64,000 nucleotides of DNA, taken from the NCBI RefSeq assembly GCF_003790525.1, contig NZ_CP033633.1. The stretch is one strand, 5' to 3'. The notes under the pieces were generated by a model. That model was given only the letters and a program-made list of their open reading frames with translations. It searched no databases and was not told the origin of the DNA. Positions 6,496 through 64,000 of this stretch are shown one piece after another; within the stretch, counting starts at the first letter, position 1; every line of letters starts with the position of its first letter. A program made the position numbers and the translations under genes. The stretch is from Escherichia coli (GTDB lineage: Bacteria; Pseudomonadota; Gammaproteobacteria; Enterobacterales; Enterobacteriaceae).

Positions 6496-7386
6496 TCAGG
6501 CTGCCAGATCATCGTTTCCGATGGAAGCATAATAAGCTTTTTCTGCTTCTGCCGGTGGGATATGGCCCAGCCTTTCCAGCAATCGTCGATTGTTATACCA
6601 GTCCACCCACGTGAGTGTGGCCAGCTCCACTTCTGTCCGGTTTTTCCAGCTCTTACGGTGTATTACCTCCGCTTTGTAAAGGCCATTGATGCTCTCCGCC
6701 ATCGCGTTGTCATACGAGTCACCAGTACTTCCTGTTGATGCCAGTAATCCGGCTTCCTTAAGCCGCTGTGTGTAGGCCAGCGATACATACTGAGAACCTT
6801 TATCACTGTGATGGACTGTGCCGGACGGTCGACGGGCCCATAACGCCTGCTCCAGAGCATCCAGCACGAATGTCGTTTCCATAGACGATGAGACCCGCCA
6901 CCCCACGATGTATCCGGCAAACACATCAATGATGAACGCCACATAGACGACCCCCTGCCATGTGCTGACGTAAGTAAAATCAGCCACCCACAACTGGTCA
7001 GGACGTTCTGCCACAAACTGACGGTTTACGCGGTCGCCTGCGGCAACGGCTTTCCGGCTGACGGTAGTGCGGACCTTTTTACCCCGGAGAACACCGGCAA
7101 GTCCCATAACCGCCATGAGGCGCGCCACTGTACATCTGGCTACCCTGATTCCTTCCCGTAACAACTGACGCCAGACTTTACGCACACCATATACCTGATG
7201 ATTCCCATCGTATACGCGCAGTATCTCTTTCTTCAGCCAGTCATCGCGCTGCGCACGGGCACTGCGTTTATAAGGATGATGTCGCTGTTGCTGACAGTGG
7301 TAATACGTTGACGGGGCAATATGTAGTTCACTGCATACCGGTCCGACCCCGTACAGCTTACGCAGCTTATCCAGCAGTGGCATCAC
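6496..7386 (-). CDS. IS629 transposase OrfB
   Basis: 296-aa ORF; DDE integrase core (HSDKGSQY...[15 protein letters not shown]); overlaps orfA as in IS3 family. Confidence 0.85.
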
Positions 7387-7709
7387 TTTTTCCAGAGGCG
7401 GTCGAACTCCGCCTTCGCAAAATAAGCGGAAGCCTGGCGAAGGATATCGTTACTGCGGCGCAGTTCACGATTTTCACGTTCCAGCTCTTTCAGACGCTGA
7501 CGTTCAGCGGTGGTGAGCCCGCCATCACCGCCTCCGGTATCCCGCTCATGCTGGCGTACCCAGACACGCAGAGTCTCCGGTGTACAGCCAATCTTTGGGG
7601 CAATGGAACAAATTGCCGCCCACTGTGAGTCATATTCGCCCTGACTTTCCAGAACCATACGAATCGCCCTCTGACGGACTTCGGGGGAAAAACGAGTATT
7701 TTTAGTCAT
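7383..7709 (-). CDS. IS629 transposase OrfA
   Basis: 108-aa [33 protein letters not shown]... with leucine-zipper tail. Confidence 0.85.
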
Positions 7710-26955: not shown

Positions 26956-27282
26956 ATGACTAAAAATACTCGTTTTTCCCCCGAAGTCCGTCAGAGGGCG
27001 ATTCGTATGGTTCTGGAAAGTCAGGGCGAATATGACTCACAGTGGGCGGCAATTTGTTCCATTGCCCCAAAGATTGGCTGTACACCGGAGACTCTGCGTG
27101 TCTGGGTACGCCAGCATGAGCGGGATACCGGAGGCGGTGATGGCGGGCTCACCACCGCTGAACGTCAGCGTCTGAAAGAGCTGGAACGTGAAAATCGTGA
27201 ACTGCGCCGCAGTAACGATATCCTTCGCCAGGCTTCCGCTTATTTTGCGAAGGCGGAGTTCGACCGCCTCTGGAAAAAGTGA
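26956..27282 (+). CDS. IS629 transposase OrfA
   Basis: Identical protein to 7383-7709. Confidence 0.85.
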
Positions 27283-28169
27283 TGCCACTGCTGGATAAGC
27301 TGCGTAAGCTGTACGGGGTCGGACCGGTATGCAGTGAACTACATATTGCCCCGTCAACGTATTACCACTGTCAGCAACAGCGACATCATCCTTATAAACG
27401 CAGTGCCCGTGCGCAGCGCGATGACTGGCTGAAGAAAGAGATACTGCGCGTATACGATGGGAATCATCAGGTATATGGTGTGCGTAAAGTCTGGCGTCAG
27501 TTGTTACGGGAAGGAATCAGGGTAGCCAGATGTACAGTGGCGCGCCTCATGGCGGTTATGGGACTTGCCGGTGTTCTCCGGGGTAAAAAGGTCCGCACTA
27601 CCGTCAGCCGGAAAGCCGTTGCCGCAGGCGACCGCGTAAACCGTCAGTTTGTGGCAGAACGTCCTGACCAGTTGTGGGTGGCTGATTTTACTTACGTCAG
27701 CACATGGCAGGGGGTCGTCTATGTGGCGTTCATCATTGATGTGTTTGCCGGATACATCGTGGGGTGGCGGGTCTCATCGTCTATGGAAACGACATTCGTG
27801 CTGGATGCTCTGGAGCAGGCGTTATGGGCCCGTCGACCGTCCGGCACAGTCCATCACAGTGATAAAGGTTCTCAGTATGTATCGCTGGCCTACACACAGC
27901 GGCTTAAGGAAGCCGGATTACTGGCATCAACAGGAAGTACTGGTGACTCGTATGACAACGCGATGGCGGAGAGCATCAATGGCCTTTACAAAGCGGAGGT
28001 AATACACCGTAAGAGCTGGAAAAACCGGACAGAAGTGGAGCTGGCCACACTCACGTGGGTGGACTGGTATAACAATCGACGATTGCTGGAAAGGCTGGGC
28101 CATATCCCACCGGCAGAAGCAGAAAAAGCTTATTATGCTTCCATCGGAAACGATGATCTGGCAGCCTGA
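27279..28169 (+). CDS. IS629 transposase OrfB
   Basis: Identical protein to 6496-7386. Confidence 0.85.
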
Positions 28170-41542: not shown

Positions 41543-41744
41543 TACAGGGCAGGCGGTGGAGGCCGCCTGTCAGCCCGCGCGAAAACCCCTGGCAGGCTGA
41601 CGCCTGCCGGAAACGCGGGGTGCAGCGCCTGCGGCGCTGCCGGCCCGGCTTTCCGGTCAGAAGGTAGTGTATGGCTGTATGCCAGGAACAGGTGTGATAT
41701 TCCGTGACGCTGTCACCGTTTCTGGCTGTTTTTTGTTGCGCCCA

Positions 41745-42300
41745 CTTCGGCTCCCGGCTGCCTGGCGGCATCCGGTCGTCAGGCCCGACTCCGACAGGCA
41801 GCTGCTGGCGCACCCGCCAGTCTCCGCCGAACCCGCTGGCGCGGTTTCGGGCTGTCGCTACGGTCCGATGCGTGAAAACCCGGGCTTGCAGCGACCGTTC
41901 CGGTCGCGCCGCCTCTGTCGCGCCGTGACCTGCGCTCCCTGCACACCTGACGGTGTGTGAGGAAACTGCGCCTGATGGCGCAGCAGTCTTCCCTCCTGCC
42001 GCCACCTCTGCGGCCTGTTTCCCGCTGTGGACTTTCCGGGGGGCAGACGTAACCCCCTCCCGTTCCATCTGTCCAGGGTGAGATGCACCGGCCACAAAAT
42101 TTTTAGCCATGAACCCGGCTAAAAATTTTGCGTCCGCCCCCGGACAGCTGTCCCGTGAGGCGGTAAACGGGCCCCCATCGGAAAGGTCCACTGCGGGGAG
42201 AAACCCCTGTGAAGTGGACGGCAGGAGGAGCTTTCGCTCCTCTGAAGGGGCACATGAACGTCCCGTCGCCGGTATCCGGTTTATCTCACATCTTTCAGTC
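41745..42300 (+). repeat. structured non-coding repeat, family B copy 1 (ssi/Frpo-like candidate) upstream of ssb
   Basis: ~555 bp GC-rich, many internal palindromes; paralogous to 48098-48640 and 51470-51850. Confidence 0.6.
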
Positions 42301-42311
42301 AGGAGGTTCTT

Positions 42312-42839
42312 ATGAGTGCACGTGGTATCAACAAGGTCATCCTCGTCGGGCGTCTGGGCAATGATCCGGAAGTCCGTTACATCCCCAACGGGGGCGCAGT
42401 GGCAAACCTGCAGGTGGCCACGTCAGAAAGCTGGCGCGACAAACAGACGGGGGAGATGCGGGAGCAGACGGAATGGCACCGCGTGGTGCTGTTCGGCAAG
42501 CTCGCGGAAGTGGCAGGTGAATATCTGCGCAAGGGCGCGCAGGTCTACATCGAGGGGCAACTCCGTACCCGTAGCTGGGAAGATAACGGTATCACCCGTT
42601 ACGTCACTGAAATTCTTGTTAAGACCACGGGCACCATGCAGATGCTGGGGAGTGCACCACAGCAGAACGCTCAGGCGCAACCGAAGCCTCAGCAGAATGG
42701 GCAGCCACAGAGTGCTGACGCGACGAAAAAAGGTGGCGCGAAAACGAAAGGCCGTGGACGTAAGGCCGCGCAGCCCGAGTCTCAGCCGCAACCGCCGGAG
42801 GGGGAGGATTACGGGTTTTCAGACGATATCCCGTTCTGA
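42312..42839 (+). CDS. ssb: plasmid single-stranded DNA-binding protein
   Basis: 175 aa; OB-fold N-terminus, Gln/Pro-rich linker, acidic tail ...DDIPF. Confidence 0.9.
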
Positions 42840-42857: not shown

Positions 42858-43130
<273 letters not shown>

Positions 43131-43193
43131 GAGAGGTGCCGGACGGGAACGCGTCCGGCAGACATACAACCATCCCGGTCAAAGGAGAAATAT

Positions 43194-45151
43194 ATGTCAG
43201 TTACAGAGTCTAAGACAAAAACGGAGCGTAAATCCAGCCGTAAACCTGCAAAAACGCAGGAAACTGCACTGTCTGCCCTGCTGGCGCAGACGGAGGAAGT
43301 GAGCGTGCCGCTGGATTCACTGATTAAATCACCGCTGAATGTGCGCACGGTGCCGTATTCTGCGGAGTCCGTCAGTGAACTGGCTGATTCCATTAAGGGA
43401 GTCGGCCTGCTGCAGAATCTGGTTGTTCATGCCCTGCCAGGTGACCGTTACGGTGTCGCCGCAGGTGGTCGCCGACTGGCAGCACTCAACATGCTGGCAG
43501 AGCGTGACATCATTCAGGCTGACTGGCCTGTCCGCGTGAAAATTATTCCGCAGGAGCTGGCGACGGCTGCATCGATGACCGAGAACGGTCATCGTCGGGA
43601 TATGCACCCTGCCGAACAGATTGCCGGATTCCGCGCAATGGCGCAGGAAGGCAAAACACCTGCGCAAATCGGTGATTTGCTGGGCTATTCACCCCGCCAT
43701 GTCCAGCGAATGCTGAAACTGGCTGACCTTGCGCCTGTCATCCTCGATGCGCTGGCAGAAGACCGCATCACCACCGAACACTGTCAGGCGCTGGCGCTGG
43801 AGAACGACACCGCGCGTCAGGTGCAGGTGTTTGAAGCCGCCTGCCAGTCAGGATGGGGTGGAAAACCGGATGTGCGGGTTATCCGCAACCTGATTACGGA
43901 AAGTGAAGTGGCGGTGAAGGACAACACTAAATTTCGCTTTGTGGGGGCTGATGCTTTCTCGCCTGACGAACTGCGCACCGATTTGTTCAGCGATGACGGG
44001 GACGGTTATGTCGACCGCGTGGCGCTCGATGCCGCCCTGCTGGAAAAACTCCAGGTTGTTGCAGAGTCCCTTCGGGAAGCAGAAGGCTGGGAATGGTGCG
44101 CCGGGCGCATGGAGCCAGTCGGTGAGTGCCGTGAGGATGCCGGAACATACCGCTGTCTGCCGGAGCCGGAAGCGGTGCTGACGGAGGCGGAAGAAGAACG
44201 CCTGAACGAACTGATGACGCGTTACGACGCGCTGGAAAACCAGTGTGAGGAATCCGACCTGCTGGAAGCAGAAATGAAGCTGATGCGCTGCATGGCGAAG
44301 GTCAGAGCGTGGACGCCGGAGATACGTGCCGGAAGCGGTGTGGTGGTGTCCTGGCGTTATGGCAACGTATGTGTCCAGCGTGGTGTGCAGTTGCGCAGTG
44401 AAGATGACGCGACTGACGACGCTGACCGCACGGAACAGGTGCAGGAGAAAGCGTCAGTGGAGGAAATCAGTCTGCCACTGCTGACGAAAATGTCTTCCGA
44501 ACGCACGCTGGCAGTCCAGGCGGCACTGATGCAGCAACCGGACAAATCCCTGACACTGCTGGCATGGACGCTCTGCCTGAATGTGTTTGGCAGCGGAGCG
44601 TACAGTAAACCAGCACAAATCAGCCTGGAATGTAAACATTATTCGCTGACCAGCGATGCGCCGTCAGGGAAGGAAGGTGCCGCATTCATGGCGCTGATGG
44701 CAGAAAAAGCCCGTCTTGCGGCCCTGTACCGGAGGGATGGTCACGGGACATGACGACATTCCTTTCACTCAGTCAGGAGGTGCTGTTATCCCTGCTCAGT
44801 TTCTGCACCGCGTGCAGCATCCACGGCGTTCAGACCCGCGAGTGTGGTCACACGTCACGCAGCCCGCTGGACACGCTGGAGAGCGCCATCGGTTTTCACA
44901 TGCGCGACTGGTGGCAGCCGACAAAAGCAAACTTCTTCGGACACCTGAAAAAGCCGCAGATTATCGCAGCCCTGAATGAGGCAGGACTGTCCGGTGCCGC
45001 ACGGGACGCGGAGAAGATGAAGAAAGGCGATGCGGCTGAACATGCAGAGTTCCATATGAAAGACAACCGCTGGGTGCCTGGCTGGATGTGTGCACCACGT
45101 CCACAGACGGATACCACTGAACGCACTGATAACCTGGCTGATGCCGCCTGA
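43194..45151 (+). pseudogene. ParB-like nuclease-domain protein (leading-region ParB/YubM-like) split by a frameshift near 44750
   Basis: ORFs 43194-44753 (519 aa, ParB/Srx-like motif ...VAAGGRRLAAL...) and 44750-45151 (133 aa) together span the ~650 aa expected. Confidence 0.65.
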
Positions 45152-45202
45152 TGAACAACCACACCGCCCCGCCGGAGACGGGGCGGCAGCAAGGGAGATA
45201 CC

Positions 45203-45640
45203 GTGATGAAAACTGAACTGACCCTGAATGTCCTGCAGACCATGAACGCACAGGAATATGAAGATATCCGTGCTGCGGGAAGCGATATGCGCCGTAATCT
45301 CACTCACGAGGTGATGCGTAAAGTGGACGCACCGGCTAACTGGATGATGAATGGCGAGTATGGCAGTGAGTTCGGGGGCTTTTTCCCCGTCCAGGTTCGT
45401 TTCACGCCAGCCCACGAACGTTTCCACCTGGCATTATGTTCGCCGGGAGACGTCTCTCAACTCTGGATGCTGGTTCTGGTGAATGGTGGTGGACAGCCTT
45501 TCGCCGTCGTTCAGGTGCAACATATCTTCACGCCTGTCGCGATCAGTCACACGCTGGCGCTCGCCGCGACACTTGATGCGCAGGGATACAGTGTTAACGA
45601 CATCATTCATATTTTGATGGCAGAAGGAGGTCAGGCATGA
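45203..45640 (+). CDS. psiB: PsiB, plasmid SOS inhibition protein B
   Basis: [27 protein letters not shown]...[10 protein letters not shown], near-identical to F PsiB. Confidence 0.9.
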
Positions 45641-46356
45641 GCGCACGTTCACGGGCACTGATCCCCCTCAGCGCAGAACAACAGGCCGCCATGCAGGCTG
45701 TGGCTGTCACCGAACAACGTCGTCGTCAGGGACGCACACTTTCAGCATGGCCTTATGCCAGCGCTTTCTTTCGCTGCCTGAATGGCAGTCGCCGGATTTC
45801 GCTGACCGATCTCCGCTTTTTTGCCCCTGCGCTGACGAAGGAGGAATTTCATGGCAACCGTCTCCTGTGGCTGGCTGCCGTGGATAAACTGATTGAAAGT
45901 TTTGGTGAAGTCTGTGTTCTTCCCCTGCCATCCGATGCGGGGCATCGTCTGTTCCCGTCTGTTCCTTTTCGTGAAGGTGAGCGTCGTCGTCAGAAAACCA
46001 CGCTGACAGAGCAGAAATACAGCCGCCAGCGGGAACGTGAGGCAGAACGACGGGAACTGGAATACCAGACATGTTTTGCTCAGGCGCAGATTGACCTTGC
46101 GTTTCATACTCCCGCCACGGTCGGAAGCTGGTTGTCCCGCTGGTCTGGTGCTGTTGAGGAGCATGATCTGGAAACGATTTTCTGGGGGTGGTGCGGGCGT
46201 TTTCCGTCACTGTCATCATTTGACCGGTTTTTCTGGCAGGAGGGACCACTCTGGCGGCTGATTTTTGAAGCCGGTGAGGCCGGTCGTGGTGCACCGGTAC
46301 AGGTACGTGCACTTGAGCAGTGGATGATCCCGAACAAGCTGGAGAACGTAATATGA
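45637..46356 (+). CDS. psiA: PsiA, plasmid SOS inhibition protein A
   Basis: 239-aa ORF overlapping psiB stop; [22 protein letters not shown]... Confidence 0.85.
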
Positions 46357-49504: not shown

Positions 49505-50467
49505 GTGAGTAAGAAGAAAACCACCACGACGCCCACGCCGCATGATGCCGCGTTCCGGTCGTTCCTGGCGAACCCCGACGTCGCCAGAGATTTTCTGGAA
49601 CTGCATCTTCCGGCGGAGTACCGGCAGTTGTGCGACCTGTCCACGCTGAAGCTGGAACCCGCCACCTTTGTTGAGCCGGACCTGCATCAGTACGCCAGCG
49701 ATATCCTCTGGAGTGTGAAAACCACCGGGGGTGAAGACGGCTATATTTATACGCTCATCGAGCACCAGAGCACCGAAAATCTGTACATGCCTTTCCGCAT
49801 GTTACGTTACAGTGTGGCGGCGATGCAGAGACATCTGGAGCAGCACAAAACATTGCCACTGGTGATTCCGGTGCTGTTCTATCATGGTGAGCGCAGCCCG
49901 TACCCGTACAGCATGAACTGGCTGGACTGTTTTGAGGATCCGGCGCTTGCGGCTAAAATATACACAAAGCCGTTTCCGCTGGTTGATATCACTGTCGTTG
50001 ATGACAATGAAATCATGAACCATCGCCGGATGGCCGCACTGACGCTGCTGATGAAGCATATCCGCCATCGTGACATGATGGAGCTGCTGGACAAACTCCC
50101 GCAGGTCATGGTGGAAATTTCAGACGAGCAGGTGCGTGTTCTGATTCATTACATCGTTAACGCAGGGGACTCTGTATCACCGGAATTTATGCGGGCGCTG
50201 GCTGAGCGTCTGCCGCAGCATGAGGATAAACTGATGACTATTGCCGAACGTCTTGAGCAGCAAGGAATACAGAAAGGAATACAGCAGGGAATACAGCAGG
50301 GAATACAGCAGGGAATACAGCAGGGAATACAGCAGGGAATACAGAAAGGCCGCATGGAGGAGAAGCAGGATATTGCGCGTCAGCTTCAGAAAACGGGAAT
50401 GCCATCTGCACAAATCTGTCAGATCACCGGACTTTCCGAAGCTGAACTGAAGAACATCACTCACTGA
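49505..50467 (+). CDS. Rpn-family (YhgA-like, PD-(D/E)XK) recombination-promoting nuclease with repeat-containing C-terminal tail
   Basis: GTG start with SD caggagga; N-terminal HDAAFRSFL...DFLELHLP...IEHQS...FRMLRYS motifs; C-terminal GIQ[QK] x7 repeat then conserved tail. Confidence 0.75.
   Translation: MSKKKTTTTPTPHDAAFRSFLANPDVARDFLELHLPAEYRQLCDLSTLKLEPATFVEPDLHQYASDILWSVKTTGGEDGYIYTLIEHQSTENLYMPFRMLRYSVAAMQRHLEQHKTLPLVIPVLFYHGERSPYPYSMNWLDCFEDPALAAKIYTKPFPLVDITVVDDNEIMNHRRMAALTLLMKHIRHRDMMELLDKLPQVMVEISDEQVRVLIHYIVNAGDSVSPEFMRALAERLPQHEDKLMTIAERLEQQGIQKGIQQGIQQGIQQGIQQGIQQGIQKGRMEEKQDIARQLQKTGMPSAQICQITGLSEAELKNITH
50234..50467 (+). CDS. putative intragenic small ORF (RpnS-like) from an internal in-frame SD+ATG within the Rpn gene
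   Basis: gagga-N7-ATG at 50234; product MTIAERLEQQ(GIQx)n...TGLSEAELKNITH parallels the two stand-alone downstream cassettes. Confidence 0.4.
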   Translation: MTIAERLEQQGIQKGIQQGIQQGIQQGIQQGIQQGIQKGRMEEKQDIARQLQKTGMPSAQICQITGLSEAELKNITH

Positions 50468-50761: not shown

Positions 50762-50992
50762 ATGACTATTGCAGAACGTCTTATACAGAAAGGTTTCGAC
50801 GAAGGTTTTAAAGAAAGTTTTAAAGAAAGTTTTAAAGAAGGCTTTAAAGAAGGCTTTAAAGAAGGGGCGCTTGAAGTGGCGCGGGAAATAGCCTGCCGGC
50901 TGCGGGATATAGGCTGGCCGCCGGAACGGATTCAGGAGGTCACGGGACTTTCCGGTGAAGAACTGAAAAAGCTGTTTCCTGATGAGCAGTAG
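50762..50992 (+). CDS. stand-alone Rpn C-terminal-tail paralogue (orphan RpnS-like cassette 2) with FKE[SG] repeats
   Basis: 76 aa MTIAERLIQKGFDEGFKESFKESFKEGFKEGFKEGALEVAREIACRLRDIGWPPERIQEVTGLSGEELKKLFPDEQ. Confidence 0.5.
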   Translation: MTIAERLIQKGFDEGFKESFKESFKEGFKEGFKEGALEVAREIACRLRDIGWPPERIQEVTGLSGEELKKLFPDEQ

Positions 50993-57068: not shown

Positions 57069-57321
57069 GCCTGTTTAAGATTCTGTGTAAATGCCTTTCT
57101 CAGAAGTGACCGTCCAGGCGGTCACCGAACTCGATAATAAAGCGGCTCATTGCCATTCGCCAGTCCTTCAACGGCATCGTCCATTTCCGGGACGCAGACT
57201 GGATTGCCAGCCACACCACTTTTTTCACCGAGTCCGTCTGTCGGGAACACTTTACGCTTTTTGATCGCATGGCGGATCACGCTGTTTAGCGACTCGATGG
57301 CATTCGTCGTATAGATCACTT
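57069..57321 (-). mobile_element. IS256-family element fragment, copy 3 (terminal ~250 bp, cut by IS629)
   Basis: Same end sequence as 5245 and 10491; ORF 57122-57319 encodes the transposase C-terminus. Confidence 0.6.
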
Positions 57322-57375: not shown

Positions 57376-57702
57376 ATGACTAAAAATACTCGTTTTTCCC
57401 CCGAAGTCCGTCAACGGGCAGTTCGTATGGTTCTGGAAAGCCAGGGCGAATATGACTCACAATGGGCGGCAATTTGTTCCATTGCTCCAAAGATTGGCTG
57501 TACGCCAGAGACCCTGCGTGTCTGGGTTCGCCAGCATGAGCGGGATACCGGGGGCGGTGATGGTGGGCTCACCACCGCTGAACGTCAGCGTCTGAAAGAG
57601 CTGGAACGCGAAAATCGTGAACTGCGCCGCAGTAACGATATCCTTCGCCAGGCTTCCGCTTATTTTGCGAAGGCGGAGTTCGACCGCCTCTGGAAAAAAT
57701 AA
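57376..57702 (+). CDS. IS629 transposase OrfA (variant)
   Basis: 108 aa, one substitution relative to copies 1 and 2. Confidence 0.8.
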
Positions 57703-58095
57703 TGCCACTGCTGGATAAGCTGCGTGAGCTGCAGTGAGCTGCATATTGCCCCGTCAACGTATTACCACTGTCAGCAACAGCAGCATCATCCTGATAAACG
57801 CAGCGCCCGTGCGCAGCGTGATGACTGGCTGAAGAAAGAGATACAGCGCGTATACGATGAAAATCACCAGGTGTACGGTGTGCGTAAAGTCTGGCGTCAG
57901 TTGTTACGGGAAGGTATCAGAGTGGCCAGATGCACTGTGACACGTCTTATGGCGGTTATGGGTTTTGCCGATGTTCTCCGGGGTAAAAGGTCCGCATTAC
58001 CGTCAGCCGGAAAGCCGTTGCCGCAGGCGACCGCGTAAACCGTCATTTCGTGGCAGAACGTCCTGACCAGCTGTGGGTGGCTGATTTTACTTACG

Positions 58096-60835
<2,740 letters not shown>

Positions 60836-63438: not shown

Positions 63439-64000
63439 TTATGCCGTGCGCACAGTCATAAGAAGCTCATGCAGAAAGCATGTAAATTTTTTAAGACGCA
63501 GATATATAAGGTATTTTCGCCATTCTGCGAGGGGAAAACTCGTAAGTTTCATAACACAAAAATTGTACGGGTAATCCGAAGGTAAAAATAACGTACCTCA
63601 ATCACCAGCTACTGGTGACATCCGTTTCCAGAGGCTAAACGGATGTTGCCGCCATACAGGCATCCTCTTCCAGGCTCATGGGATATTGCAGTCACCCGAA
63701 GGCGCTTCTCTCAGACCTCCGGGAGATTGGTTGGTCGCCGGAGCGACAGATATTCAAAAGGCATTTTGCTCCATGAGAACAAAAAATCAACAGTATTCTA
63801 GACAAGGAACCGGAGACAGGCTAAAAAAACTGTGGGCGCGTTTCTGGCAGTCAAGAAAACCATGGGGTTAGTAAGATTATGCAACAGGAGCCAGGAACGC
63901 GTTCCGCTTCTTCTGTAAGAGGCGCTCAGAATGTGCTTAATGCTTCTTTTAATGGTATCAGAGATGAACGGGCCTGAGTCATTCCGGCAGGTTATAGCGT

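Follow-up and report, generated by a model that had tools for sequence, protein, structure and literature searches.

The closest described relative of the gene analysed here is found on the F plasmid, where the protein long known as YfjB, YubM or ParB2 was renamed HerB in a preprint of July 2026 (Virolle et al., bioRxiv; PMC13370423). HerB is a CTP-binding ParB-like clamp that is zygotically induced in new transconjugants, and its published role is host reprogramming, not partition (PMC13370423). Four domains were described: D1 (residues 1-136), a ParB-type CTP-binding domain with a structure in complex with CTPγS; D2 (137-235), an HTH DNA-binding domain; D3 (238-417); and D4 (418-652), a new helical dimerisation module for which a cryo-EM structure of residues 421-636 is available (PMC13370423). 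The domain-swapped dimer core formed by D4 buries ~4,500 Å²; a helix is swapped, and residues 475-479 build a β-sheet between the two molecules (PMC13370423). A loop (545-558) and a module of four helices (577-625) are further parts of D4 (PMC13370423). In F HerB this domain mediates nucleoid association; constructs without D4 are diffuse, and focus formation needs all domains plus R94 and E130 (PMC13370423). An F plasmid deleted for herB conjugates at normal frequency, its acquisition cost rises by ~10%, and it loses multi-day competitions (PMC13370423). In pED208, the corresponding ParB2 is translocated through the T4SS, and its deletion leaves transfer and SOS induction unchanged (PMC8406263). 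[quoted passage not shown]

The window, a 64,000-nucleotide stretch of an Escherichia coli contig (NZ_CP033633.1), contains a gene of this family that is interrupted near its 3′ end. The original prediction had described it as two ORFs overlapping by 4 bp in different frames, which together represent one ParB-like gene of ~650 residues split by a frameshift, and both parts of that description hold. The ORF listing and the junction sequence (GGG ACA TGA CG) give the two ORFs, with the ORF1 stop codon TGA at 44751-44753, the ORF2 start codon ATG at 44750-44752, and the four bases ATGA shared between them. The parts of the locus are as follows.

43194..44753, plus strand: ORF1, 519 aa, ATG start
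43194..44726, plus strand: herB codons 1-511 in the native frame, comprising D1, D2, D3 and the first 94 residues of D4 (418-511)
44727..44727, plus strand: site of the 1-bp deletion, with one T left where relatives have TT (CCCTGT[T]ACCGG)
44727..44753, plus strand: out-of-frame tail of ORF1, 8 codons (YRRDGHGT, in place of LPEGWSRD in the intact protein) and then TGA
44750..45151, plus strand: ORF2, 133 aa, ATG start; herB codons 520-652 plus the stop, that is, the C-terminal 133 residues of D4

Alignment to homologues, which had been proposed as the way to locate the indel, put the loss of one T at 44727/44728. A base-by-base comparison with L001 and L003 shows CCCTGTACCGG in the window and CCCTGTTACCGG in its relatives. 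Re-insertion of this T restored the 652-aa protein WP_045146531.1 residue for residue, and the two ORFs divide that protein between them: residues 1-511 of ORF1 are identical to its residues 1-511, and residues 1-133 of ORF2 are identical to its residues 520-652, the ORF2 start being the native internal Met520. A megablast search of positions 43100-45250 against PLSDB and all complete RefSeq E. coli genomes matched thousands of plasmids, among which the ten or so best matches were reported as 100.0% identical, each spanning 2152 bases against 2151 in the query. The single T was the sole difference over 2151 nt from at least ten plasmids, of the IncK2/Z and IncI-gamma/K1 types, that carry an intact 1959-nt coding sequence. 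All four relatives that cover the site in the multi-relative alignment disagree with the window. The intact junction was present in all eight of the fetched plasmid relatives classed as intact (L001-L003, L005-L008 and L028) and in plasmid pGF60-B (L004), itself frameshifted elsewhere in the gene. Three contig fragments (L020-L022) have it too, as do at least 120 metagenome contigs. The deletion allele was absent from PLSDB and from the RefSeq complete E. coli genomes, a 31-mer across the deletion junction matched neither the metagenome contigs nor any locus that was fetched, and an exact look-up of the 519-aa product in a collection of 15 billion proteins returned nothing. As sequenced, the locus reads as a pseudogene or split allele of the gene and not as an intact family member.

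By its sequence, the gene is identifiable as herB (synonyms yfjB, yubM and parB2) of an IncK2/Z-type, MOBP/MPF_I E. coli plasmid. With the T restored, the protein aligns with F-plasmid HerB over its full length and across all four domains, without gaps and at equal length (652 aa), with 625 of 652 residues identical (96%); its UniRef name is YubM. Both genes lie between the DUF905 gene and psiB, downstream of ssb, and they differ in that the window allele is one T short, with D4 cut after residue 511, and in their backbones, IncF (MOBF, MPF_F) for F and IncK2/Z (MOBP, MPF_I) for the window. The preprint counts as family members proteins with at least 80% coverage of each of D1-D4 (PMC13370423); in the window D1-D4 do not form one uninterrupted polypeptide with a contiguous D4 (418-652), as the frame breaks after codon 511. 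In ORF1, the Pfam families ParB_N (aa 38-131) and HTH_ParB (aa 136-222) were matched, and alignment to F HerB showed Box II (G91-A97, GGRRLAA, including R94), Box III E130 and the HTH residues R168, R172 and K175 all to be present. G91, R94 and E130 are invariant in a family alignment of 67 members at 28-57% identity. No Pfam family was matched by ORF2. Residues 15-218 resemble the structures of Spo0J, ParB and Noc (1vz0, E = 9.8e-18; 4umk; 7nfu) in a search of PDB sequences, and D3 and D4 matched nothing in Pfam or in the PDB sequences searched, a set that did not include the HerB depositions.

Like the ParB, Spo0J and Noc CTPase clamps, the window protein thus has N-terminal CTP-binding and HTH domains, homologous over residues 15-218, and unlike them it lacks the canonical ParB C-terminal domain. 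The gene was also considered as a canonical ParABS partition ParB and rejected, given that its neighbours are ssb, DUF905 and psiB, that neither parA nor parS is evident next to it, and that only residues 15-218 match ParB structures. The word nuclease in the original prediction does not stand: it is the old Pfam name of PF02195, now called ParB N-terminal domain. No nuclease activity is known for HerB, and what its study describes is binding of CTP and association with DNA (PMC13370423). The gene itself is already known and recently characterised, and there is nothing new in a single-base frameshift of it.

The placement of the gene in a plasmid leading region, also part of the original prediction, was confirmed by its neighbours, which form an ssb-DUF905-herB-psiB-psiA cluster.

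41543..42311, minus strand: 769 nt poor in ORFs, upstream of ssb and on the transferred strand; candidate single-strand promoter region of the ssi/Frpo type
42312..42839, plus strand: ssb, first gene of the cluster, annotated as single-stranded DNA-binding protein in colinear relatives
42897..43130, plus strand: DUF905 gene, directly upstream of herB (Pfam DUF905, E = 8.8e-35), annotated in relatives
45206..45640, plus strand: psiB (SOS inhibitor), separated from the upstream herB stop by 52 nt (Pfam PsiB, E = 1.7e-57), annotated in relatives
45637..46356, plus strand: psiA, last gene of the cluster, intact (Pfam PsiA, E = 6.5e-41)

The closest relatives of the window are IncK2/Z or IncI-gamma/K1 conjugative plasmids of the MOBP/MPF_I type, mostly from poultry E. 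coli. In colinear relatives a nikA-like mobA and a relaxase gene lie downstream of the cluster, so the cluster is assigned to the leading region, with transcription towards oriT. When 41543-42311 (minus strand) was folded as single-stranded DNA, the minimum free energy was -219.3 kcal/mol, compared to -160.7 ± 5.9 for shuffled sequences (z = -9.9). This strong predicted fold fits a candidate ssi/Frpo-type promoter for the ssb-herB-psiB-psiA operon. A scan for sigma-70 promoters and terminators around the locus found nothing relevant on the plus strand. The 52-nt spacer between herB and psiB contains a GC-rich 12-bp inverted repeat (45162-45188) that is not followed by a T-tract on the plus strand. 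At the end of the cluster, the psiA ORF has 720 nt and is intact, both in the window and in the IncK relatives. Four IncF-type relatives (L004, L025, L026 and L027) have psiA annotated as frameshifted (763 nt), which may reflect either an allele shared across the lineage or a habit of annotation.

The position of the break within the protein was examined on an AF2 model of the intact 652-aa protein (mean pLDDT 88.7, pTM 0.66). In this model a helix at 496-511 is followed by an ordered loop at 512-519 (LPEGWSRD, within a block of pLDDT 89-96) and by helices at 520-525 and 528-541, while the flexible linker lies away from the break, at 401-420 (pLDDT 53-67). The frameshift is accordingly modelled as cutting within folded D4, at the end of a helix, and not in a floppy linker. 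In the family alignment K610, W627 and P629 never vary, and P513 shows at least 90% conservation; the frameshift replaces the loop that holds P513 and parts the other three residues from the rest of the protein. Since the break after residue 511 falls inside folded D4, loss of function is expected. A ribosome would read 511 native codons and 8 wrong ones and stop at 44753, with 133 native codons left as ORF2. Of the four domains, the truncated product would keep D1 (the CTPase), D2 (the HTH) and D3, but D4 only as far as its 94th residue. If it behaves like the published constructs that lack D4, it would be expected to lose the ability to dimerise, to associate with the nucleoid and to form foci. 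From the truncation data on F HerB, the split allele is predicted to fail in the activities of the intact protein, which comprise CTP binding, dimerisation, nucleoid foci and reprogramming of host transcription. New hosts would then probably receive the plasmid with no working HerB, acquisition cost would no longer be relieved by HerB, and the transfer rate may be altered. The premature stop leaves 449 nt before psiB, and if ORF2 is untranslated, expression of psiB and psiA could therefore drop via polarity, a caveat that was also raised by Benz & Hall for their parB-like knock-outs (bioRxiv 10.1101/2022.07.06.498992).

Disruption of herB is a recurrent event in other plasmids. Among 60 records evenly spaced through the 4644 matching complete E. 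coli records, which hold ~54 copies of the gene, 4 copies (~7%) are annotated as pseudogenes: two frameshifted, one truncated beside an IS200/IS605 element, and one beside a group II intron. Of 104 metagenome contigs on which the complete gene would fit, 8 also carry independent lesions. Codons 21, 251 and 491 are each the site of a 1-bp indel, and two contigs (L031 and L127) share a Δ14/+4 allele that destroys Box II. The other lesions are an internal deletion of 178 nt, a nonsense mutation at codon 583, and a 3′ end that has been replaced. An N-terminal deletion allele (P0003) leaves a 203-aa C-terminal remnant on nine E. coli and Salmonella contigs. The disrupted public copies are listed here by locus.

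L025-L028: disrupted herB
L031, L036, L068, L089, L091, L106, L110, L127: disrupted herB
L010-L013: disrupted herB

Three truncated cluster members from long contigs (P0005, P0008 and P0020) were considered as further alleles and rejected as contig-end fragments. Plasmid pGF60-B, which matched over the same length of the query, was considered as a carrier of the same allele and rejected, as its deletion affects a different base (window-equivalent 43840). The herB pseudogenes of pGF60-B (CP172187), pMB12428_2, pVE-V10-F_2, p2_STEC384 and NRZ101541 p2 share with the window the same broken gene on ordinary conjugative plasmids; their lesions differ, being other 1-bp indels, one truncation adjacent to IS200/IS605 and one adjacent to a group II intron, and none is the 44727 deletion.

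The same gene has been broken under observation. Experimental evolution of two clinical ESBL plasmids yielded repeated frameshifts, stops and deletions in the parB-like gene (Benz & Hall, bioRxiv 10.1101/2022.07.06.498992; PMC10104558), and parB-like knock-outs raised the transfer rate in one host strain (Benz & Hall, bioRxiv 10.1101/2022.07.06.498992). Gene and operon (ssi3: ssb, parB-like, psiB-psiA) are the same as for the window allele; the laboratory alleles arose under observation with a measured effect on transfer, whereas the window allele is known from sequence alone. The plasmids used in the evolution experiment are reportedly IncI1.

Whether the break is a real frameshift or a sequencing error was posed as an alternative in the original prediction. 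The frameshift itself is certain in the sequence as deposited, and the context evidence leans towards a real mutation; we favour, with modest confidence, the reading that the 1-bp deletion is a real and very recent loss-of-function mutation. The competing explanation, that the plasmid in truth carries TT and an intact 652-aa herB and that the consensus dropped one base, is possible, and we regard it as somewhat doubtful. A 1-bp deletion is a classic consensus error of long-read assemblies, and the allele is unique among the protein, plasmid, genome and metagenome collections searched, where the intact junction is abundant. Apart from the one base, herB is 100% identical to ten records, with no decay after the frameshift; uniqueness and the absence of further decay, taken together, fit a very recent event or an error alike. 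A different 1-bp deletion in herB is flagged as a frameshift in pGF60-B, so such calls do occur in databases. Against an artefact stands the quality of the assembly. When the window was aligned to six relatives, 48.7 kb was covered by at least two of them, and in this portion 24 differences were private to the window, 22 substitutions and only 2 indels; against one relative (L018) the alignment runs over 24.8 kb with zero gaps. The window assembly is not riddled with indels, and because the private-indel rate is 2 in 48.7 kb, ~0.04-0.08 erroneous indels would be expected in a gene of 1.96 kb. The deletion site, moreover, is a TT dinucleotide; it lies neither in a homopolymer of at least three bases nor in a Dam or Dcm motif. 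The second private indel, an additional C at 57234 (GAGTCCGTC compared to GAGTCGTC in three relatives), also falls in a short run and could be another consensus error; it sits in an IS256-like transposase remnant adjoining an IS3-family copy. Real disruptions of herB, finally, are common (7-8% of copies) and are selected in the laboratory. It is a further step, and one that we consider unlikely to be correct, that the deletion is both real and adaptive, a natural counterpart of the host-specific losses selected in the laboratory, with the share of broken copies suggesting antagonistic selection on HerB; a bolder variant would have the ATGA-coupled halves form a working clamp. Under such selection HerB would be helpful on entry to naive hosts and costly or transfer-limiting in some resident hosts.

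The layout of the two ORFs invites other readings, in which the gene is not broken at all. If the deletion is real, the gene might still work as two pieces, with reinitiation at ATGA and non-covalent reassembly of ORF1 and ORF2. The stop/start overlap is a classic arrangement for translational coupling, the cut lies where a helix gives way to a loop, with ORF2 starting exactly at the next helix of the AF2 model, and ORF2 keeps every invariant C-terminal residue. This reading is nevertheless very improbable, as the break removes the ordered loop at 512-519 together with P513, which is nearly invariant, no homologue is organised as two genes, and the SD-like GGAGGG lies 13 nt from the ORF2 ATG. 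Effective spacing between such a sequence and the start codon is usually shorter than this. Complementation between fragments would also be demanding, because D4 is a domain-swapped dimer with an extended helix (PMC13370423). Production of the full-length protein by programmed ribosomal frameshifting has in its favour the two overlapping frames and nothing more. No slippery heptamer of the X XXY YYZ form occurs in the ORF1 frame from 44660 to the stop, the mRNA at the junction is not structured beyond chance (fold z = +0.71), and every relative is single-frame; a programmed -1 frameshift is effectively refuted. The same holds for a natural two-gene layout, with ORF1 a complete shorter ParB-like protein and ORF2 a separate conserved gene, which the original prediction had named as the finding that would overturn it and to which we give next to no credence. 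ORF2 does start at an ATG of its own, and one record (OJL26155.1) matches its sequence exactly, but that record is a contig-edge fragment: its contig, of 1101 bp, begins 26 nt before the ATG and retains TT. The closest 120 representatives of 90%-identity clusters are all full length (120/120; 647-689 aa). Among the best 150 representatives of 50%-identity clusters, 120 fall below 60% identity to the query, and 109 of these have one alignment that runs right through query positions 480-560; their median length is 648 aa. The remaining 11 stop at various points between 212 and 526, in the manner of fragments, with no clustering at ~519 aa. The cryo-EM structure of D4 (421-636) likewise shows one domain on both sides of the break (PMC13370423), and the two-gene architecture is refuted by the full-length homologues that span it.

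Taken alone, the finding is of little weight: a plasmid gene that is well conserved has one private frameshift of a single base, which may be an assembly error. For annotation, ORF1 and ORF2 should be merged as one herB pseudogene, or as an intact gene if the reads show TT, and the term nuclease should be dropped. If the deletion is real, the allele would mark a plasmid lineage that spreads without HerB and would offer a natural variant for testing the benefit of HerB against its cost. It is also a data point in a wider pattern, in which HerB eases plasmid establishment and yet is lost repeatedly, in ~7-8% of copies in two independent samples, and this pattern of broken natural copies deserves a proper census.

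Several other features were observed elsewhere in the window. In the region of an Rpn-family nuclease gene, tandem repeats differ in copy number from those of relatives by in-frame sizes, at 50276-50299 (24 nt) and at 50805-50866 (12-nt units), and the annotated length of this gene varies among relatives (879, 939 and 963 nt). Searches of Rfam gave the following matches.

7312-7428, minus strand: ALIL pseudoknot (IS3-family frameshift element)
27237-27353, plus strand: ALIL pseudoknot
57657-57743, plus strand: ALIL pseudoknot, a weaker match (63.8 bits) with a shorter footprint
60279-60365: group II intron catalytic domain
63591-63748, minus strand: STAXI RNA

These matches show that the accessory region around the leading region is rich in IS elements and introns.
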